Below are positions 2,350 to 26,544 of a DNA stretch of 64,000 nt, piece after piece (positions within the stretch are counted from its first letter, which is position 1; each line of letters opens with the position of its first letter). The position numbers were made by a program, and so were the translations under genes. Source of the stretch: Marsupella aquatica (taxonomy: Eukaryota; Plantae; Marchantiophyta); NCBI GenBank assembly GCA_973895155.1, contig OZ316893.1, positions 4,074,490 through 4,138,489 of the forward strand, written 5' to 3'. The notes under the pieces were generated by a model that saw only the letters and a program-made list of their open reading frames with translations, was not told the DNA's origin and made no database searches.

Positions 2350-4208
2350 GCAACAAGCATTGTATGCATTAAGAACACTCCATCGATGACAACACAAAGC
2401 CAAAGTATATCTCCAACAAAAAAGAGTTGCATCCAAATGTACTAGATTAAGTGACTATAGGCTGGTATGTAGCAAATGACTAGGTCATTGCTACCACCGG
2501 CTACAGCAAACTCGCACTAGTCCAAGAGAATACGATAGAAAACTATCTATGAACGACCCTAATGATCGAGCGCGTCCCTCCATTACCACCTAGGCAAATG
2601 GTAGGTTGCAAGCAACGCCTATGGTGCCGCTTGCCCCAGCAAATGCCTATGAGATCATTTTGGCAAAAAAAAGGCAAAAGAATAAGCAATGAGAGGAGAA
2701 GAGAAGAGAATGAGGAGAATGAACTGAGAGACTCTCCCTTTTATGCTAATCATATCTAAGTTCCTAATTAATGTCACACCTAACTTCATTAGCTACTAAT
2801 TAATATCATAGCTAACCTAATTAAAAGCACACCCACCCATTCTTCTAGAATTACTCAAATAAAAATGTATATCTATGTTGAAAAATGAGTGAGAAGTCTA
2901 CAAAAGGAATAAAAGCACATTTTTTTGTTTTGATGTTGACCCCCCTCTTGCAAGAAAAGGAAAGATTTATAAAACCTGAAATCTCTCCATTCTATGTCGT
3001 TTTTGTTCCTCCCCTTAAAAGACCCTTAAACCATCCATTGCTCCCCACTTCTAAGATAGAATATAGGGGTTAGCTAGTTCGATACACTCAACTAGTGTCT
3101 GCCTCCTCTAGCAAGAAAAAATATAAACAAAGACCATTTTGAAAATCTCTCCCTTAAATACCCTTAAACCTCTCAACAATTAAAGAAAAAATTCTTTAAA
3201 CCCTTTTTATTTCTCCCCTTAAAGTAATCCTCCATCGGGGCCAAAAAATAAAAATGTCTCTTTTTGTCTTTTTGATTTCCCCCTTCTTTAAAATACCCTT
3301 GATTCTCTATCTGTTTTAATTCTCAAAGAAAATATGATAATGAGATCAGCCATGGGGCATGCTCCTTACTCATGGTTTTTTCTAAACAAAAAAGAAACCC
3401 CTTTAAAAATCTTTTCGAGGTGACCAATTTCACCCAAAAACAAAAAGGAAGCCCCTTTAAGAGTTGTACCTTTTCAAGGTGACTTTGGTCCCAAAATTAA
3501 GAACGAAAGGCAAGATCGAGGCTAATCAATGCGATTAGCCTTTATTAACCCCGTACGTGACTGCCCGCTGCCCAGTATTCCTAACGTTAATATACAGTTA
3601 AATACCAAGAGCGAATCGACGTGGGCACAAACTGCCCCAAGGCTAGTTGGTAGAGGAGCTCCTTTGGGATGCAGCAGGTCCCAGGTTCGAATCTGGTCAA
3701 TGACAATAGTGGCTTTTGTCATTCACCCCACCCAAAAGTGGGGATCATTCACACGCTAGTCACACTTAGAAAAAGTGTGACTCCAAAAAACAGTCGGGCA
3801 GCTAGCAGGGCAGCGGGCGGCTAAAATGGTACAGGAGGCTCATTATGAGCCTCGATCTTGCCTTTCGTGCTGAATGTCCCAAAGGGAGATATATAAAAGC
3901 ATTAAGAAATTCTAATAACTAAAAGACAAAGACATTAAATGGTGAGAGAATCAAGTACACACTTACATTGAGAGGGGAGCATTTAATGTACTTTCATTTG
4001 TGTGTAATACAATATACAATATACACCCAATACCCCATGGTTGAGTACTGTATACAAACCAAAGAGTGTTAGTGTGAGTGAAAATAATGTGACCAAAGTA
4101 TATTTTTGTGCCTCTATATGTATGAGGAGAAATTTGTATGCAGAGAAAATTGTATGCGGAGAAAATACTTTGTAGACATTTTTTGCCCCCCATCACATAA
4201 CTGAACTG
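2350..4208. mobile_element. Copy 1 of a ~1.5-kb diverged direct repeat (transposon-derived unit), interrupted by a 380-bp TIR element
   Basis: Colinear similarity with 4882-6397, e.g. 'gtagcaaatgactaggtcat..gaaactatctatgaacgaccctaatgatcgagcgcg', 'tttgaaaatctctcccttaaatacccttaaacctctc' and 'gagaatcaagtacacacttacattgag'. Both copies end in cccatcaca-x-ctgaact. Confidence 0.8.
3496..3875. mobile_element. Non-autonomous TIR element (MITE) with 8-bp TSD, hAT-like
   Basis: Perfect 21-bp inverted repeat acgaaaggcaagatcgaggct (3503-3523) / agcctcgatcttgcctttcgt (3848-3868), with imperfect extension to the ends. Flanked by gtcccaaa at 3488-3495 and 3876-3883. Absent from the second copy of the host repeat. 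Confidence 0.85.
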
Positions 4209-4881
4209 AAAGTTCAGCCAACAAGCTACCCGACCATTATCAAAAGCGTACAATGCTTTGACATGTCTACAATAAGCACATTTCTTTGTAGGAGGGGCTT
4301 TTTCTCCCTCTTCTTCTTCTTCTCCAATCACTTCTCTTGCACTTGGAGAGCAATGGTCACGTGCAATATGTGGAGAGTCCGTTTCATGGGGCATGTGAAC
4401 GTGCCTTACATTGCCATGTTTAACACTCTCATCTCTTGCCCTAACTCCTTCTTGCCCAAAATTGTTTACAATTTCAATATCATCAAATTCCAATCGGAGT
4501 CGTACATCTTCAACTTGCACCGACACACTTGGTGGCCGTCTTCGTTCTGCTCTTGCATGCCCCACTCTATCCAAAACTGGTGAGAGATTTATCATGACCA
4601 CCAAACAATGATCAATTCTTACATCTTGTACTACAATGTCCTCTCGGATAGGGACAATTGGTATTCTCCGTCGTTTGGAATATTCATTTTTCATGCGTCC
4701 CGGGCTTGCTGCTTCAACACAAACATAGCATGAATCCCTTGGGAATTGGAACTCATCCCTTGGTTTCTCATGTTTCCCTATGTTTGCACCACAAGAGACT
4801 GTTATTTGTCCATCCCTTACAATCACTACAAACATTTTGTGTACTCTCATCACCATCACAAAAATGGGCAGGTGTTCGGTT

Positions 4882-6397
4882 CAACAAGCATTGTATGCAT
4901 CGAAAACACTCCATCAGTAGCACTCCATAATATATCTCCAAAAAAATAGTCGCATCCAAATGTAGTAAATTAAGCCACTTTAGGCGGATTTGTAGCAAAT
5001 GACTAGGTCATCGCTACCACTGGCTAAAGGAAACTCGCACTAGTCCAAAAGAATACAATAGAAACTATCTATGAACGACCCTAATGATCGAGCGCGCCCC
5101 TCCACGACCACCTAAGCAAATGGTAGGTTGCAAGCAATGCCTATGGCCAAGCTATGGCGCTGCTTGCCCTAGCAAATGCCTATGAGGCCGCTTTGGCCAA
5201 AAAAAGGCAAAAGAATAAGCAAGGAGAAGAGAGAGGGGAGAAGAGAAGAGAAGAGAAGTGGAGAGGAGAGAATGAGAAAAATGAGGGAGGACTCTCCCTT
5301 TTATGCTAATCTTGCCTTGGGTTCCTCATTAATGTCATACCTAACCTAATACTCTAATTAGTATCACATCTAATCCACTTAAAAGTACACTCAACCAATT
5401 TTTTTATAATTACTCAAACCAAAATGTAGAAATTCAGAAAATGAACAAAAGAATATCTATATTATTTGATTTTAATTTTATCTTTCTACTTTGTTAAAAA
5501 TTGCCCTCAACTAGTGTTCACCCCCTCTTACAAGAAAAAAATACAAGTTCAACCAACAAACAAAGACCAGTTTGAAAATCTCTCCCTTAAATACCCTTAA
5601 ACCTCTCTACAATTAAAGAAAAAAATTCTTAAAACCCTTTTATCCCTCCCCTTAAAGTAACCCTCCATCCGCCAAAGAAAGAAAATGTCTCTTTTTGTCT
5701 TTTTTATTTTCCCCTTCTTTCAAATACCCTTGATCCTCTATCACTTTTCACTCTCAAATAAAATAAAATAATGATAACCACCATGGGGCATGCTCCTCAC
5801 CCATTGTTTCTTCGAAACAAAAAGGAAGCCCCTTTAAAAATCATCTTCAAGGTGACCAAATTCACCCAAAATAATATATATATATATATATGTTTCTTCT
5901 AAACAAAAAGGAAACACTTTTAAGAGTCGTACCTTTTCAAGGGGACCAATTACACCCAAAGGAAAATAAATATGATTCATTTCATTCAAAATGAAACATA
6001 TAAAATCACTAAGAAAATAAAACAAGTAAAAAATAAAGACATTAAATGGAACTAATGGTAAGAGAATCAAGTACACACTTACATTGAGGTGGGAGCATTC
6101 AATGTACTTTTATTTGTGTTGAATATAATATACTCTGTGTACTCCAATTTGTCTTGATCTTGAATACTCCATACAAACTAAAGAGTGTTAGAATGAGTAT
6201 AACTCCAATTTGTCTTGATCTTGAATACTCCATACAAACTAAAGAGTGTTAGAATGAGTATCTTGTGACTAAAATATATTTGTGTGTCTCTATACGTATG
6301 TGGAGAAAGTATATGTGGAGAAAACTTATGTAGAGAAAACTTATGCGCGGACAAAAAGTTGGGAGCCATTTTGGGCTCCCATCACAAAGCTGAACTT
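4882..6397. mobile_element. Copy 2 of the ~1.5-kb diverged direct repeat
   Basis: See copy 1. Also contains an internal ~61-bp tandem duplication at ~6141-6261. Confidence 0.8.
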
Positions 6398-15480: not shown

Positions 15481-16209
15481 AGCATTTACTCACTTTCTGG
15501 TCAATTCCTCAGTTTCGTCACGAGGTTACAGACTATCAACCCCACACCAAACCCTCATTACCCTAAAGTTGAAGACTGACTCGTGTAAGGTGAAAACAAG
15601 GGACCCACCATTTAAGCGACCGATCATTCTGTGTTTGTATGTGATCTGTCGCCCGGAAGGTCGCGGGTTCAAAAACTTGGACAATCTTACAAGCCTCGCC
15701 TCGCGCGCTGAGAGAGAGAGAGAGAGATTTGTTCTCCTCCACTCCACTGCTCTCGAGACGAGACGAGGGGGAGCGAAGAAACGAAAGAAGAAACACAGAG
15801 CGTCGTGTTGCATAGCTTACTCTCTTTCAGTTCGTTCATTACCTCCGTGCCGCAACAACAGTGAGCCAAGCAAGCCCCGGAGCGACGAACAACCTACGCA
15901 CCCGCACCCGATCGGCATCGGCGAAAGAGAAGTTGGACCACCGTCTGTCGACCAGCTCGAAAACGGAGATCGAAAGGCGGACGAGAAAGTCCCGATTCGT
16001 TTCGCAGGAGGGTCGGAGGGTTTTGGTTCCTGACTGATTGATTGAACACGGTCGTCGGGACACACAGAGACACACACATACTCTACACGGGCAACGGATC
16101 GATCAATTGAGCACAATCAACACGCACAGCTCTGTGTTGTATTGTCCCTCCAACATATTGTGTTTCGGAAAGCAAAAGAAAAGGGTCTTTGTCTTGGAGG
16201 GCCGGAGTG

Positions 16210-19200
16210 ATGGAGGTCGAGATGCGGCAGGCCGAGCTGGTCGAGCAATTCGTGGTCCTGGGGAAGACTGCGAGGGGGAGAGCAGCAGCGGAACTCGTAA
16301 CGCACGCTACTTCGCATCCCAACCTATATGCATTCTCGGAGCTTTTGGCTCTGCCGCATATTCTTGAGGTGAGTACAATAGACTGGTACTTCCGGATTTT
16401 TTCTTTGGATTTATCCTCTCGTGTCTCATTCCAGGCGACTACTGGGACAAGAGCCCTACCCTTGACATCGAACGAGGGAGGAAACGAACGTATTACATAG
16501 CACTTAATCCAGAAACGCTAGCGGATGAACTCCAATTAGCCTTCTTACTCGCTACCCTAATTACTTTCCTAGTGGCAACTGCGAATCATGAATAAGGGAG
16601 TTTTAATTGTCAATTTGGAGTAATGGCAACCTCACATGTAGTGCAGTGTGCATTTAAGTCTTTTCACCCGCTACCCTAATTCCTTACTAAGTAGCAGTCA
16701 GCAACCGTGAATAAAAGAATTTTTGTGGAAACTTTATAGAAACAGCGCAGTATGGTTGAATGTAGCTAGGAGACTTTCTCGCGTATAACTCCCCAGGGTC
16801 TCGTTTGAAGCCCTACTATCGGTTTGATAAACTGGACAATGGCACCTTCAGAAAACCTTGCTGGATTTTCCGCACAAACCGTGCACAATTGTCGCGAATT
16901 CCGCAGGGGGAAACAAAAATCATCTAAAGCGTTTTAGGTCACCCTTTCTTTAGATTGTCTTCTCTATACCTGTAATGGATCTACTCTCAGTAAGACATCA
17001 ATCAGCATTCTTTGTTTCCTGTCGTTCTTTCGTGCAGCTGCAAGGAACAGAGCATTCAAGCTCCCTCGATCTACTACGTCTTTTTGCCCATGGTACTTGG
17101 GCCGATTATAAAAGTAATCCTCTTATCCCGGTTCTACCTGTTGCTCTTGTGTGTAAACGTTCACAATAAATTTTATTCTCTCATGCAGTGCATCATGTTC
17201 CAGGTGAGGCCGTTGGACGTTAAAATAATTAAACTCAATTTGGTATTCCTCTGTAATGTAAAAGAGATTTGGGTAAGGTAATGAAGCTGGATTTATCTCT
17301 TACTAGATGTTTAGAATTTTAGGTCCCAGCGTATAGTGCTGCTAGCAGAAAATACATACTGTCTTTTAGTCCAGCAGGTAATCAGATTTTACTTTTTCGG
17401 TTTCGCAGATAACAGTCGGCAGCTTCCTCCCTTACATCCGGAGCAGCAACTGAAACTAAAGCAACTAACTGTTATGACGCTAGCTGAAAAATCAAAGGTA
17501 TCCTGCGCACATCTTATCACCGGTCAGGCATGTTTGGCTATAGTATCGCTGACAGTTTAGGGATTTGAGATGTAGCTGTGCCTAGCCAAACTTCTCACAT
17601 GAGTCTTACTGCCGTCTGAGATATGTTTGGAACCGACATGCTTGCATGTGTTTGTTGTAAAGTCTCACTACTTGTGAATGGCCTGGTTTTTCCCCTCGAT
17701 CTCTTTTCATTATCAACGTTTGCAGTCGCTATCAAAACTCATTTGAATCTTTTCATTAATGTGATTTGGGCGGGAACTCTATACTCTGACTCATTATGTC
17801 TTTTGATGTAGTGACGCATGGCAGCTCTGGCAACTGAAAAACAGGAAGAAAAGTTGTTGCTAAGCATTAAATGTATGTAGCAAACCCTAATACTTGCCGT
17901 TTTTCTGATGAAGGTACTACCTTACGATTTGTTGATGCAACAATTGGATGTGTCCAATGTTCGGGAGCTGGAAGATCTCTTGATCAATGACTGTATGTAT
18001 GTGGTAAGTCAATGTGCTGCTTACAGTTGAACGGCCAACTCTCTCTTTCATAGCCCCTTTGTATATTTGAAACCGAAACAAGCAACACGTGGAAAGGAAG
18101 TCTAACATCTCCTTTCTGATTTTAAATTGTATATGATTTTGGTAGAATGTTATTTTACTAGCCATGTTTCTGAAGCCACGAAGAATTTGCTGTTGTGTTC
18201 CCAGTTCCCTTATTAATGCTTGTGGTGCCCCTGTTTTTTTATTTAGAGGTTCTTCGCAATTAGTGTCTTCCTGAATTCTTCTCGTCTCGTGCACAGGGTA
18301 TTGTGAGGGGTAAATTGGATCAGCGGCAGCGCTGCTTTGAGGTAATGACGTTCAACAGAGCTTCCTGCAGATCCATGCTTTCACTTCGTGTTTATGGGTT
18401 TGTTAAGCACTCACATAAAAGTCACATCCGGTTATACGGCGAGTCAAGAGAAGCGAAATGAGAATTATCTTTGACATGCGCTCGTAAACATGTGTTGGCA
18501 CTTCAGGTTCAATTTGCTGCTGGGAGAGACTTGAGACCAGGACAGCTGGACACAATGATACAGACCCTTGCTACTTGGTATGTATTAGCCATTGCCTGTA
18601 ATACGGATTGTCTTCATTTCGTGAACTCTACCCTTTTTGAGTCTAGGGTTTTTGTTTCGACTCCTGAACAGGGCCTTGCTAGTGTTCTGTTTCCTGACGC
18701 TTTAGAGAGGGAAGCCCATTTTCAGACAGCTTGCACTTTTGCATTTTTTGTTTTGAAATGGTGTCACCGGCAAGGGTTGTAGGGAGGACCAAGTGCTACA
18801 CTTGCTGAACTAGTTGTCTAGATCTGGTGGGCACGACGTAATTGGCCAAGCTTCATCAGCGGTTACCTCTCTACGATCTATTGAGCGTGTTTCTGATGTA
18901 TGCTGTTTACAGGCTGGGTAACACTGACAACCTTTTGCTGGCCATTCAAGACAAGATCAAATGGGCAGACAGCATGAGTGATTTAGATCGAAAGCACAAG
19001 AAGGAAGTAGAAGACAGGGCAGAGGAGCTAAGAAAGTCAATCAAGGTAAGTGACGTTATCCTTGTTGCTAATTTTTGCATCTGCATGCATTTTACTCACA
19101 TCCTTCGGTGTCGCAAAGGGAATGAAGTTCTCGGAATCAATTTCGGTTCTAGCTGGAGTTTCCTGATTTGTTGGCTTATTTTTGCACTAGGAATACAATA

Positions 19201-20354
19201 AAACTGAGTGCTTGCCTGTGGGAATCATATAATCAACATCTCATTCGTAGGCGATTTTGCACGTTTTGGGGAGCGTTGAAACCCGATTCTTTTCCGTCAT
19301 TCAGATGTCTAGCGCAAATGAGAATCTTATCTTGGAGGCAGTGAGGGTTTGAGTTTGGACCTGTGGATTACTTAGATGTTGAGTTTCGTTAGGTTGTTTC
19401 TGGGTGGAATTCTTGTTCTAGACTTCGAACCTGTTGATAGCCTGATGTTTATAGCACTTAATAATGCAATGGAGACGAAAGTTGTTCGATATGTGTTTCT
19501 CACTTGTTGGCAGAAGCCTTTGTACACCAACCTGTAAGCAGGCCGAAATGGATTTACGAGGACAACAAGATGTGGGGTATACTACTGAAAGTGGGGCTTT
19601 GGTTATGGATTATGTTGAGGAGGACCGGTCCCGCCCTAAGAGGTGAGCATTGTCCCTATCCCTCCCAGACCACAGGCTCTTCAAGAAGTAGTAAGTGAAT
19701 GCATGAATGGATGAGTCGGAGACCTATGTTCAACTTTCACAGCCTTCAATAAACTTTTGGTGTTCAAGTCGGTATTTGTCTCGATCTAACGAAGTTCTAG
19801 CAAGAATTGATGGAATCTCCCAAACTCTACACATCTCACTGATGACTGGCTCATTTATAAAAGTACGAACTTCTTTTATTGTGGTGTTAAATACAGTTGC
19901 TATCCTTGCCCTTGTGATGAAGCCTTCAGTCTCTCTGCAAGTAAGCCTGAATTATATTATGTCATATGGTCCTATCTAAGATGGTACCAACGTCTCTGGC
20001 CTTCCCAAATTTAGAACTTGCACTAATTCCAAAGAAGAAAGCTATATCTTCAAACCACTTGTGCTATGTAGCTCTTTCCTGGTCAAAAGTCCTGACTGAA
20101 AAAACTGCCGTCTCTACCCTGCTGTGCCGGTGAAGGAAGCTTCCCATGCATGAGAAAAGGTATGTCCATCTTTCTCAGAGAGGGCTTACCTTTGCAAATT
20201 TCCGTGCTGATCCTTCATTCAACGAATCTTATCCCTGATATTGGTGCCAAGAATGGTGTGATCAGTGCTCGTACATGATACAAGGGTCAACCTGTGAGTT
20301 CTGTTTGTGGATAGAGACTAATGTCGGATTATGTGTGTATGCAGAAGGCGGTAG
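16210..20354 (+). CDS. CSN7: COP9 signalosome complex subunit 7 (PCI domain), 9 coding exons: ~16210-16368, 17038-17113, 17409-17497, 17914-18003, 18297-18341, 18508-18578, 18913-19045, ~19542-19642, 20345-20354
   Basis: Spliced translation MEVEMRQAELVEQFVVL..ATSHPNLYAFSELL..LDLLRLFAHGTWADYK..QLKLKQLTVMTLAE..VLPYDLLMQQLDVSNVRELEDLLINDCMYVGIVRGKLDQRQRCFEVQFAAGRDLRPGQL..IQDKIKWADSMS..MDYVEEDRSRPKRRR* matches the known plant CSN7/FUS5 pattern. GT-AG junctions are present. Confidence 0.95.
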
Positions 20355-21072
20355 GAACACATAGTAGCACCTGGTTGTCAATGTAGCACAATCACGAACC
20401 CATTTTTTGGAGGTCTAGATTTGTCTTCTTTCTCCCACAGAGCTAACCGATTCTTTGATGGTTGGATTGACCCCCTCAACGCTTGCGCTTGCAGCATCAC
20501 ATAGGAGTTGCTAGAAGGTAGAGAACACAATTTGGTAAAATAGCTCCTCTTGATAGTTTCAAAGATTAGGAAATTCGACGAAGTCTATTTGTAGAGGCTT
20601 GTTTCATCTATATGCTGTGAGAACTGGAGGGTCAGCTATGACAATATTTCATGGCTGCTTCGCCATCAAACTGAGTTGCGACCACATGATTTCTGGTCTC
20701 TGTGAGCTCTGTCTAGGTCAGTGGCTAAATTCAAAGCCCACCATAATTTTTGAGAAAGTGCGGTCTTGTACATCGAAGTAAAACAGCGAAGTTCGTTTGC
20801 AGCCCTAGAACGTGTGTTCTTTTTAATAATTTATGATTGGACTTATCCGGAATGTTTAACATGCTTAACTATTTGTGCACGTAGTTTATTGAAATGTCAA
20901 CGAGCAATTGCGAAGGTCAATTGTAAAAAGTTTTCCCTTTTCGAAGTTGGAGTAGCCCTTTCATTACTGTCTCTAAATCTGAAGTTGACATCGCTAGTTC
21001 ATTCCATAACCTGAAGGTCAGATTAGAAACCTTGGGGTGGGTCCGAAAACCTTGCAGTCGGGAAGTTCATCC

Positions 21073-21189
21073 GAGGGTCCCTTATTGCCTCTTATATTAC
21101 TATATTTCTTTTTGTACCATGAGGACAACTGAGGGTCCTTTATTGCCTCTTATATTACTATATTTCTTTTTGTACCATGAGGACAACTG
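21073..21189. repeat. ~58-bp near-perfect tandem duplication
   Basis: gagggtcc(c/t)ttattgcctcttatattactatatttctttttgtaccatgaggacaact x2. Confidence 0.9.
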
Positions 21190-22536
21190 CACAGGTGCCT
21201 AGACGATTGTGGTGTTTGTAGCCAGAAGACAACTTGTACCTACTCCATGTGCACACCAGAGGAACCTCCAGGACTACCAATCTCTTAGGGCCAGGTTCCA
21301 TGGGCCAGGGGCAGGGAGTACCATCACTCCCTCTAACAGCCCCTGGAGCCAATGAGAATGCCCTGTATTGTTCCTATACAAGGGCAAGGGGTACCCCTGA
21401 AGTGTGACTACAGTGTTTGTACACTCCTCAATCCCTGGAAAAGCTGCAATCTTATTAGCTTAAAAATTCTGACAGTATCCGTACTCCTTACTCTCAGCCC
21501 CATGGAACCTAGCCTTTAGTAGTTGTTTCAGACATTGAATTAACTCTCAACGTAACCTAGGGTTAGTGCTTACCTTACTGACGGGCATAGTTTCCGGTAG
21601 GTACCCCTCCATTCCCATAATCTTCCCTGTAGACACTCAGGACTCCCCTCCAGACATGAATAACCCCCCATGCAGAAAGGCATAATGTGTCACTAGAAGT
21701 GGCTTATTCCTCACCGTCTGAGAATATTTTCATTGTTACAATGAGCTATAGGTGACATCAGATGACAGCAGTCATATCAGACTACACATGGCAGCAATTT
21801 CAGCAGATTCAAGTGAAGCGATGCAACCATGTATAGATGCCAGACTGCAACAACCGACTCCACACAAATTGATTTACGCAAAAGCTTTTGTCTGAGGAAA
21901 ATCCATTGTCACTTTATTCATTGAATCATCAAACAATGATCCTTGTTCACGGGATCAACTTGCTTAAGATTTACATCAAAAAACTAGAGTCACATGATAA
22001 ACAAGATCTGTTCTGATCTAAATGTAATTCCTAATCTACACACCTGCTATGAACATTCTCTGTGCTTCTAACTCTATGATCAACAGCTTCTAGCATTCTC
22101 CTTGCTGTCATCATCATTGTTCTTGTCGCCACAAATGATGTTAATCGTACAATGTTGGAACTGCTTACCACTCATGTTACTTCCTCCGGAAATTGAGAGC
22201 TACTTGTTCCTCTAAAATCCTTTGCTGTAGTAGGATTCTGTGCCAAGTACACCTCAAAATTGATGTCATCAGTCTCCTTATGCTACTTGGAGACTTCTTC
22301 AGTGTGCTCCTTATGTCACTGCACTACCTTTGCAGTTGGCACATACTCCTGGGCCTTCTTCAAAGTATCGAAACATTCCTCGTTGTGACAAAAGCTCACA
22401 AAAAATCAACACAAATGTGACCAAAAAAATATTGAAGCCTCTACCTGCATCGTGCTGGTGTTGCTTGTCGGTTTTGAACTTCCAATGATGTCCTTGCAAA
22501 TGACAGGAGACAACGTGGTTCCACTCAAATGTTGCA

Positions 22537-25500
22537 CTAAGGGATAACCATTGGCCCAATCAGTGGATTCAATGTTTTTGAGTAGCCAATCACCTCATCT
22601 TCCACAAATCGCTTAGATACCTCTGTAAGCGCAGTCTCGTAATTCAAACCAGGTCTTGAAGAAACAAGAGTCGTTGCTTCCATTTTCAAGAGTTTGGTTC
22701 GGTCGTGCCTTTGATAGCCATCAACAATATGATGACCTGATATCATCATACCCACATCGTCAAGTACGCCCCAAGAAGCCATCCGCGTAATAAAAGTAGC
22801 TCGCCCACTCTTGTTGATGAACAGGTCTGTCAACAGGCCAACAAGCTGCAGCATGGTTCTTTAGCCACTTAGCGCTCGGTTTCGAGCCACCTTGTGCTTT
22901 CTATTATACCATGCAATGCTGGTCAGGATAGTAATTGGACCTAGAAACAAATATGGCTTAGTTTCAGCCACATCCTCCACTAGCAGGCGTCACAAGTATT
23001 GCTTGACGCACAAGACAATATCTGGCTCAAGCAAGTGGTACAAATTTTGAAATTGCTCCTCATTGTAATGACTTAGTGTATAATTGTTTGTTTTCAATTC
23101 TCGCTCTTCAAACCTGAACAGATGCCACAAAAACAGCAAAGCTGAGAAGCGCCTCCATCAATGTTCACTTGAATGAATTGACAAATGAGTAAAAATGAAT
23201 CACAAAGTTTTGCTTAGCACACAAAAGCCATTACAAATCAAGAAACAACATCAGCTCAAGAATCAAAAGAAAGCAACACAGTTACCTCACGTACTCCTAT
23301 CACAATCTGTTCACCTCAATTCTCAAATCCTTTCGTTGCAAATCACAGTTCGCCACCACCTCTTATTCCAAGATGACAAAGACAATAAAGTGCGAGTTGT
23401 TTCTGGCAGCCATATGGACTGGTAATTTGATGGTCGATGTCAGCCAACACAGTGTTTCTATATCCTCTATAATCATCTGAACCTGCCACCAAAGAACTAG
23501 GAAACAATAGGAGGAGCCAGGAATTGGGAGTGTCGTGGTCAACAGGTGAAGGAGTAAGATCAGCAATTGGTGCCATTTGGCTGACGTTGATTCGCACATT
23601 GTGCTGGACCGATTAGATACACAGCTCAAAATTTGGGTTGCGGTCCATGGCATCATGCCCGCGAGGGTCAGGCTTCTTGTGTTCTGTCGTCACGGAGATG
23701 CTTGTTGTGTGAAGAGAAAGTACCTTCCAAATATGAACAGGTCGGAGTAAATGAGTGCTTGACTCACATCGATAGATCGCAAAGTTGCCGAAGTCGACTA
23801 TTTTGTCATTAGCTTTAAGTCCATCCGTATCAGGATTTTGACTCGACCGCACCAGAGATTGTCGTGCTACAAAATTATGAAGGAATGCCACGATTCTTTC
23901 TTGTTGTGCTAAGAGTTTCCTTCTCAAATCAAGCAATGAACATTAAAAGTCAAAAGAATGTGGAGTCTTTTTTTGGAGGAGCTGCAAGGAGCTGAAAAAT
24001 GGTCTGGCGGAGCTGAACTCATCGAACTGTGAGCCCTTCAGTCTTGGTCTGGGAGTGGTGCGGGATGGATGCGGCAGAGTTATCGACCTGCCTGATCTTA
24101 TGATGATTACAAATTGCTGAACTGTTTACTCCTGATCAAAGGAGTGTGATTACTGCGATCCAAAGTGATTTCTCGTCGTTTTTAGCTTTAGGTTTGACAC
24201 ACGGGAGATCTCTTTTAGGGTTGATTACACACGAGAGCGGCTGTGGGCGTGTGCTGGATGCACGCACTTGAGGTAGGATGCAGATGATGATTAGGTAAAG
24301 ACAAGCGGATTTACGAGTCACTCAAAGTAACTTGGATTAGGGGGTATAATCTTGATTACACATCGTGGTGTAATCTTTGCGAAGGTAACAGATCGATCTC
24401 TCTCATCGGAATGGTGGATAGATAGCGAGGACCTATTCTTCAAAGGGAAGATATGGGTGAGCACTTACGGTTTTGCTCTGTGTTTTCAATTAGCTTTATA
24501 CTTAATTCTTGAGAGATTAGTGCAAAAGATTGCTGTAAAATCGAATTAGGAGGAAGCAGTGGGGGCAACGTAACTTGGAGAGCTGGCCCTAAGCAGTACA
24601 GTATGTCGCGTAATCGACATTGGACTGGACCTGAGGGCAGGGGCAGGGGCCCTGCTTCTAATCGATATGGAGCTGAGAGGCATGATGAAGAAGGGGGCGA
24701 TAAGCATTGGTCTCACTCGAGTGGCCGTCCGGAGGAGATTGCTTTGACACGAAGTAGCTACTCTGATGCGCTTGCGGGTGAACCTCTGTCGAGGAAGGTA
24801 GTACCTAGTCAGGATGTTCGAGCTGCATCTGGCACTTGACCTACTACTAGTGAGAATACTGGGCAAGCGGCCCCTGGTGACACTATACAGAGTTGGTATG
24901 GACTTTTTAAAAAAATTTAAAAAAACATTTATAAAAAAAAGTCAAAAGAATGTTGTAGATAGAATTCTTGCTTGCTTTCATTTTTTATTCCCGCCATCCC
25001 GTGCAAACTTCCTTATTGCTTCCCTTAGAACCAATCAAGTTTTGGTGAAGGTTGGATGCGAATTGATGTTGATTTGTCTCAACCAAACCTTCTGTGATAC
25101 CATTCAGAGCTCGAATAACACTGGCATGCCGAATGATTGGATTTAGGCCATTCATCATGTTCATGAGAGTGGAGTTGGGATATGGTGATCCATCGACCTT
25201 TATCGCCCTTGAAAATAAGTGGCTAAAGAGTTCATCGAGCTTAACTAAGGGCAGGTCCCCTATAAGAACTGACATATCTCAATGCATGGCCGATCGGAGC
25301 TGATCAGCTTGCCTCATTGCCCAACGATCTTTGTGTTCAGAAGGCTGTTTCTCTTTTCCACGACTAGCCTCCACCAATACAGGATCAACAACATCTCTTA
25401 GTGCTGGAATACTGACGACTGTGGCAGTTGATCCCTCACCATGTGCAACTATGCCATTTCTTTCCTGTGAAGTACCTGCATTCTGAAGAGTGGGAATGGC

Positions 25501-25734
25501 AACAATACATCCATCAAATTGAGGTAAATCAGCAAGGAAATCATGAATTGTCTCAAGCTCGCTTGGAAGCTCAAGAAGGCACATCTCCAAGTCATCCAAA
25601 TCTTGGGAATCTGCTTCATCATCTTTGGTCTTTGCAATGTCATCTTCGATCTTGGCAGCCATAACCCTCTGGACAGATTTTGATATGACTTGAAATGACT
25701 GAGATGGATAAGTGAAACTCTCCAAGACCTTCAT
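22537..25734 (-). pseudogene. Crypton/DUF3504-like tyrosine recombinase (DNA transposon gene), spliced and degenerate; exons ~25734-24955, 23482-23286, 23113-22537
   Basis: Minus-strand motifs occur in the expected order: KDRWAMRQ; LDELFSHLFSRAIKVDGSPYPNSTL; KQARILST; SPYGCQKQLALYCLCHLGIRGGGEL; EYVR|FEERELKTN across a GT-AG intron (23285-23114); CVKQYL*R..YLFLGP..WYNRKHKVARN; LVGL..INKSGRATFITRM..GV..MMISGH....GYQR. Several stops and frameshifts are present. Confidence 0.8.
23962..24936 (+). mobile_element. ~1-kb A-tailed insertion (non-LTR retroposon-like) with ~17-bp TSD, inside the recombinase gene
   Basis: aaaagtcaaaagaatgt occurs at 23945-23961 and 24937-24953, and the 3' end is A-rich (aaaaaatttaaaaaaacatttataaaa). 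Confidence 0.65.
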
Positions 25735-26544
25735 GAAGTGTTCAATAATGCATCCACACCAATCGTCTTTTGCAAATGTCTTATACGAAGGACTACAGAC
25801 TCAATGCAACATACAAACCTGAAAATGCTTGAACTAGTGAATGGACCCAATTCAGCAGGCTACATCGCGCAGCAAAGAGAGGGAATTCAAATTCTGTGCA
25901 CGACAGCACTTCTCTATGATCTCCCATGTTGATTTCAAATCTTGCCCTGCCAACGCCTCAGCCTTGACGATCATAGTCTCACCTCAAAAAATGAACCAAC
26001 TATGCTCATCCCATCACAAAGCTATACACTCTTTTCAAACGTCTTTTCCTTGCTTGGACGTCATTGGTTGGACTGTTTGTAGCCGGTAAGATAATCACTG
26101 ACCCTAGATTACGTACGGATAACGATCTAACGGTTGTTACTAGCGTTCAATCGGCCATCCCCTATTCCTCCCCAAACTCTCCCGGCTGCGTCGATCGAGT
26201 CAAGGTCGGAACTTGGTCGAGCAGGTTACATGCCAATAACCTCCCTATAGATCGGTATTATCTTATACATTGCACAGGGAGAATATGATCTTTCATGGGA
26301 TAGACTACAAGCAATTACATTCATCATCAACTTGAGTGTGATTCATTTTCAACACCCTCCCTTGAGCCCTAGATTCATCATCAATTTGATCAATTTGAGT
26401 GTGGTTCATTTCAACACTGTCCCGTGAGCCACACTTGCTACAAGGGAGACTTCTGATTTTTGGATTTGATAGCATGTTGGAATTGTCAAGGGAAATTTTT
26501 GATCTTTGGCTCTGATAGCATGTTGGAACTGTAAACAGGATGGA

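Follow-up and report, generated by a model that had tools for sequence, protein, structure and literature searches.

What kind of gene lies behind four short minus-strand open reading frames (ORFs) in a liverwort genome, and what left it there? The ORFs (25279–25734, 24985–25275, 23343–23597 and 22537–22854) are in a stretch of Marsupella aquatica DNA of 64,000 nucleotides, the whole of which we call the window, and are present where an initial annotation had placed them and read them as one spliced protein of a decayed Crypton-like transposon. We find that they belong to a real but dead tyrosine-recombinase gene with two introns, and we consider it probable (roughly 0.85) that this gene is the dead remnant of a Crypton-like DNA transposon belonging to seedless land plants.

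A two-intron recombinase gene in the window

A search with exon 3 of the window gene picked out one protein among 479 candidates, P0001 of Calypogeia fissa (711 aa, 57% identical). Comparison of P0001 with the window by tblastn reveals five blocks from 25644 to 22092, and the window translation, with X at its breaks, aligns with P0001 at 51% identity over 484 columns (E 3e-167). The gene is organized as follows:

24972–25734, minus strand: exon 1, acidic N-terminal region and core-binding domain, matching P0001 residues 116–339 by tblastn; putative start ATG at 25734; lesions are a stop at 25281–25279, a frameshift near 25080 and two further stops
23483–24971, minus strand: intron 1, 1489 bp long (497 bp minus the nested insertion), in phase 0, with a GC donor and an AG acceptor
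23945–24952, plus strand: nested insertion of 992 bp in intron 1, with an A-rich 3′ tail and 16-bp direct repeats at 24952–24937 and 23960–23945
23286–23482, minus strand: exon 2, with the first catalytic Arg (GIRGG, 23361–23363), frameshifts near 23454 and 23345, and two stops
23114–23285, minus strand: intron 2, GT–AG, phase 2, 172 bp, at a position common across the plant family
22092–23113, minus strand: exon 3, with the catalytic Lys, N-K-S-G-R, the His and the nucleophile position; 57% identity to P0001, profile E 2e-42; frame break near 22538; C-terminal motif at 22193–22092
22705–22707, minus strand: catalytic tyrosine position, CAC (His) in the window copy

Homology of the window pieces lies far beyond chance, as a family profile built from 107 homologues with the window left out scores them at E 2e-42, 2e-28, 4e-11 and 3e-9 (2e-28 and 3e-9 falling in exon 1) and finds no match in the whole 64 kb besides these recombinase pieces. 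Parts of the initial gene structure hold: ORFs 1 and 2 share a frame with one stop between them (TGA at 25281–25279), and the 172-bp GT–AG intron at 23285–23114 is our intron 2. Other parts required revision. The ORFs do not simply join into one protein, since three frameshifts (near 25080, 23454 and 23345) and seven in-frame stops interrupt the window copy; approximately the first 45 codons of ORF 3, previously taken as protein, are intron; the supposed protein motif 'K.ARILS' is read-through of the intron 1 donor; and the gene does not end at 22537, as homology to P0001 continues to about 22092.

Joining across 24971–23483 brings back collinearity with P0001, and the K|V break point of intron 1 is also seen in 7 of the 13 relatives shown, whose gene calls were intron-blind. 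On these two grounds intron 1 replaces another candidate, in which the 1.5-kb gap between ORFs 2 and 3 was an insertion missing from other copies. Four public runs contain the stretch. We aligned contigs from runs X1, X2 and X4 at 80% likeness, and in three of three runs contigs skip the nested insertion and join 23940 to 24955; the inserted 992 bp are likely a non-LTR retroposon copy. Intron 1 also holds, at 23942–23483 on the minus strand, a frame that shares its phase with part of exon 2, spans ~158 codons, contains a single stop and recurs in at least one other copy; it has no Pfam match. For intron 2, 12 of 190 proteins scored start at query 394–401 and 12 end at 397–402. The recombinase gene therefore carries two introns, both at positions common to relatives; introns within the recombinase gene are known for fungal Cryptons.

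Homologues and predicted fold

Searching with P0001 returned 561 proteins at E ≤0.001 (the best 150 of 561 listed). The Pfam DUF3504 and Phage_integrase profiles, to which the initial annotation had looked for confirmation, match none of five window pieces, and the Calypogeia homologue P0001 likewise matches neither. Among the plant-type proteins scanned, only P0066 and the Riccia protein P0082 pass the DUF3504 (PF12012) cut-off, with P0006 (E 4e-5) and P0022 scoring under it. The best solved relative of the family profile is QRICH1 (DUF3504; E 2e-18), followed by integrases and XerA. A ParE_like match on an antisense ORF (E 0.002, below cut-off) was taken as chance.

A structure model of P0001 built on 107 homologues has pLDDT mostly above 90 over approximately residues 220–570, and matches Cre (Foldseek E 8e-7; VIA Z 18.2, rmsd 3.5, 293 aligned) better than topoisomerase IB (Z 13.2); a single-sequence fold of P0001 (pLDDT 33) was discarded. 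The model predicts that P0001, a homologue of the window gene, has a tyrosine-recombinase core-binding and catalytic fold.

Catalytic residues and decay of the window copy

We next compared the active site of the window gene with those of its relatives. The catalytic Arg of GIRG (23361–23363), the Lys of ELKTN (23092–23094), the N-K-S-G-R motif (Lys 22810–22812, Arg 22801–22803) and the His of SGH (22732–22734) are all present as first read. For the tyrosine, the TAT codon of 'GY' exists at 22714–22716 and is not the nucleophile, which sits three codons on at 22705–22707. In the alignment, Tyr occupies the 'GY' column in none of the 22 canonical DUF3504-type rows and in 26 of the 47 rows of plant type, and the column three residues past it (GH+9) holds Tyr in 22/22 canonical and 40/50 plant-type rows and aligns with the XerA tyrosine. 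The window copy has His at this nucleophile position and is therefore predicted to be inactive. The other letter at 22707, which restores TAC (Tyr), accounts for 116/130, 180/210 and 152/213 of summed contig depth in runs X1, X2 and X4, a measure that is no copy number. Other copies also read TGG (Trp) at the first stop (25281–25279) and have two extra bases at 23343, with the frame kept at 23343 and 22538. We conclude that the window copy is a fossil with no likely function.

The residue at the HxxR His position sets the plant family apart. N-K-S-G-R aligns with the H-x-L-R of XerA-type enzymes in the profile, and of 65 plant-type rows 44 carry Lys in this His column, 8 carry Arg (Lys/Arg 52/65) and none carries His, compared with His in 18/22 canonical rows. 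Plant-type rows accordingly do not have the R-H-R-Y tetrad of Cryptons, the His being replaced. Full R-K-K/R-R-H-Y sets occur in P0001, P0006, P0009, P0017 and P0188, with P0001 itself carrying Arg at the HxxR His position, not Lys. According to the available text of PMC2747268, type IB topoisomerases pair Lys at this position with His at the one that follows. Because type IB topoisomerases carry Lys there, the Lys-for-His change need not abolish catalysis, and by this analogy the plant-type site may be compatible with it.

Copies, extent and surroundings of the element

Contigs less than 90% alike to the stretch make up 21/56, 56/137 and 53/145 of those aligned in three of three runs, and these other copies, over 10% divergent, have non-coding flanks in common. 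The same organism carries several diverged copies, and the family is dispersed and multicopy. Homologues lie on six contigs of differing size in Calypogeia and on five in Adiantum capillus-veneris. Common to the diverged copies is the following span:

21590–26100, minus strand: approximate span common to diverged copies (diverged contigs run from ~21588 to 26100)

In X1, summed depth returns to flank level at 19500–20967 and 26840–27573, past two other repeats. The exact element ends were not found, as other repeats hide both, nor were a target site or an empty-site allele. A Crypton would have no terminal inverted repeats, and terminal direct repeats of 4–6 bp or none; repeats at the rough bounds here are 6–8 bp matches, with none above 8 bp in a comparison run with no control. 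As the initial annotation had stated, no reverse transcriptase (RT) or RNase H adjoins the gene: Pfam finds neither among 100 ORFs (≥50 aa) in 19300–30500, a stop-free ORF scan that a decayed RT could escape, and tblastn with the RT of P0081 gives no match. P0081 is a fern gene model joining a recombinase to Pfam RVT_1, the one RT fusion in 56 proteins scanned. The recombinase-only result holds for the window locus.

Several further features surround the span. A high-copy small element at 26300–26690 (minus strand) resembles a TRIM: its LTR-like units are repeated, it has a purine tract and a primer-binding-like TGCTATCAGAGCC, and it includes a tRNA-like stretch at 26551–26607 (Rfam tRNA 25.7 bits, cut-off 29). 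Two MITE-like sequences lie at 21284–21519 (high-copy, 21-bp inverted ends) and 30077–30291 (very high-copy, 30-bp inverted ends, many unrelated flanks). An array of diverged ~128-bp units occupies 27200–28950, with another repeat breaking in at ~27940–28320, and a duplicated block of ~2.1–2.5 kb, 82–94% alike, occupies 2400–6260. The flanking host genes are CSN7 at 16100–19300 (plus strand) and, at 30300–37900, exons encoding kinase and ANTH domains, all of them on the minus strand; with the P0001 homologue, these neighbours mark the host as a land plant.

Distribution and phylogeny

Thirty proteins were looked up, and those with names come from Calypogeia, Riccia, Marchantia, Ceratodon, Selaginella, Diphasiastrum and two Adiantum species, placing relatives of the window gene in liverworts, a moss, lycophytes and ferns. 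Seed plants and algae are absent from the named proteins of these 30, a small sample picked by score. A scan of metagenome loci returned no plant locus; five loci from 58 pattern matches have short integrase-like ORFs with S-H-S-G-R and 52–59% GC and are likely bacterial, and two of these five form the outgroup of our tree.

In a tree of 61 rows, the 37 plant-type rows make up one side of a branch with 98/99 support, a value that is not independent because the groups were set from an earlier tree, and the window sequence groups with P0001 (98/94). The tree leaves out A1 rows with fewer than 130 of 201 positions and another 12 identical, near-identical, long-branch or ragged rows, including P0041 and P0111. 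The latter is a long-branch relative that reads T-N-T-S-G-R, with Thr at the His position. The 22 canonical rows were recognized by DUF3504 scores alone and are mostly unnamed, such that the plant-type rows adjoin unnamed DUF3504 proteins in a tree without named Crypton, DIRS or Glomhopper references; the nearest non-plant-type neighbours in the search are DUF3504 proteins with N-H-S-x-R.

Probable host capture in relatives

Proteins fusing an N-terminal head to the recombinase domain are found in Selaginella (two genes), in Diphasiastrum and among Logan proteins (P0062, P0069, P0077, P0090/P0173). The recombinase domain of these fusions is without the first Arg and without the HxxR region, and four fusion pairs compared are 42–48% identical over 594–736 columns. 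The fusion head matches PDB 8p26 (E 4e-13), which we take to be Arabidopsis PAXX. The preprint 10.1101/2023.05.26.542399 describes a crystal structure of full-length AtPAXX whose size matches, with no code stated in the text available. Judged from sequence, the conserved lycophyte gene that joins a PAXX-like head to a dead recombinase is likely domesticated. Marchantia Mp5g04240 (P0028), labelled 'DUF3504 domain-containing' in UniRef, is degenerate and 95% identical to its M. paleacea counterpart P0180, a pattern that makes a second domestication likely.

Origin of the window gene

Together, the copies, the profile, the RT scan and the tree support the interpretation first proposed, that of a decayed, intron-bearing, recombinase-only, multicopy land-plant Crypton-like element with Lys in place of the HxxR His. 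We weighed three other origins against it. One is that the window holds a decayed member of a domesticated host gene family, the plant equivalent of ZMYM/QRICH1, whose copies arose by gene duplication. Ordinary introns and the existence of degenerate conserved relatives (Marchantia P0028/P0180 at 95%, lycophyte fusions at 42–48% across genera) speak for this origin, but the closest relatives of the window gene retain the catalytic set and branch apart from the degenerate genes, and copies in the same organism are more than 10% different yet have common non-coding flanks, making it improbable. Still less probable is an integrase left from a larger cargo-carrying or virus-like element, either Starship-like or an endogenous DNA virus: such elements too use tyrosine recombinases in the literature available to us and the ends at the window locus were not found, whereas the flanks are host genes (CSN7, protein kinase, ANTH) and short repeats, other repeats take over from the shared sequence within ~1 kb of the gene on either side, and the best profile match is QRICH1/DUF3504. 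Least probable of all is the recombinase of a DIRS/Ngaro-type retrotransposon that lost gag and RT at the window locus, since, although DIRS-like elements have tyrosine recombinases and gave a domain to streptophyte genomes (PMC3537659, in its available part) and P0081 has RVT_1 behind its recombinase, two family-wide intron positions would be hard to retain through an RNA step, RT is absent from the 100 flanking ORFs and by tblastn, the span common to copies has no room for one, RT fusion is limited to 1 of 56 proteins, and the plant family matches DUF3504, a match that DIRS/Ngaro recombinases are reported not to give in the accessible text of Kojima and Jurka (PMC3212892).

We therefore return to a Crypton-like transposon as the source of the window gene. 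An intact element would be ~3.5–4 kb (the span minus the nested insertion) and would code for one enzyme, which would bind the element ends and nick DNA through a 3′-phosphotyrosine link at an R-K-K-R-H-Y site resembling the one in type IB topoisomerases. The element would be excised as a circle and recombined into a short matching target, moving without reverse transcription and without terminal inverted repeats. In the window copy, loss of the tyrosine would then have followed, along with stops, frameshifts and an insertion resembling a retroposon in intron 1. The Crypton model in PMC3212892 involves a circular intermediate and terminal repeats that are short or missing, and an active CryptonF in Chlamydomonas is reported to excise cleanly and recombine at target sites (PMC9977147); the available part of a 2026 review describes the Crypton mechanism as without experimental demonstration (PMC13565253). 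The element would resemble CryptonA in its working but lacks the tetrad His. Formal CryptonA membership is not established, because the ends were not found, the tetrad His is replaced and the tree is without Repbase references.

A broader reading is tentative, with the odds somewhat against it: an ancient Crypton lineage of seedless land plants that may still be mobile in some liverworts or ferns, has a topoisomerase-IB-type site, and was captured by hosts at least twice, once behind a PAXX end-joining head in lycophytes as an undescribed DNA-binding repair factor. In the literature searched, as far as its text was available, Cryptons are described from fungi, oomycetes, diatoms, animals and a green alga, and no land-plant Crypton was found (PMC11630846, PMC10288648 and PMC3537659 included; Repbase, Dfam, subscription journals and preprint supplements lay outside its scope). 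A Crypton-like branch of liverworts, mosses, lycophytes and ferns is thus apparently undescribed, and the plant family may already be in repeat libraries. Such a diverse bryophyte-to-fern branch would give land plants a further class of DNA transposon, one that mostly escapes Pfam. A fixed Lys for His would allow a recombinase with a pentad of the topoisomerase type to be put to the test, P0188 being an intact example, and ZMYM/QRICH1 domestication would have plant parallels in the lycophyte PAXX fusion and in the Marchantia gene.

Comparison with known systems

Animal CryptonA elements are among the closest known systems, with the recombinase as the sole recognizable domain, a QRICH1-type core-binding domain and DUF3504 catalytic domain, and a record of domestication (PMC3212892). 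The plant family differs from CryptonA in its land-plant hosts, in Lys/Arg for the tetrad His (52/65, versus His in 18/22 canonical rows), in its separate 98/99 branch and in scoring mostly under the Pfam DUF3504 cut-off. Glomhopper, a CryptonA subfamily of Glomeromycota reported in 2026 (PMC13465315), shares DUF3504, mostly truncated or intron-bearing copies and ends that are not identifiable; the available text reports that Glomhopper, unlike the plant family, retains the catalytic His, and names no plant host, so that the two are set apart by description only. CryptonF-1_cRei of Chlamydomonas is likewise a green-lineage Crypton, the one seen moving and a model for mechanism in the available account (PMC9977147), but is algal and a CryptonF, again a distinction by description only. 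The CryptonF group carries GCR1_C according to the accessible text of PMC3212892, and 56 plant-family homologues scanned have no GCR1_C match.

The catalytic fold is shared with type IB topoisomerases and Cre, and R-K-K-R-H-Y is the type IB topoisomerase set (PMC2747268, available text). In contrast to type IB topoisomerases, the predicted fold is nearer to Cre (Z 18.2 versus 13.2) and the gene, besides having decayed, is present in multiple copies. Finally, QRICH1/ZMYM and ALOG domains are precedents for host capture of recombinase parts in the available portions of PMC3212892 and PMC3537659, from which the plant captures, a lycophyte PAXX-like fusion and a Marchantia gene, would be separate.
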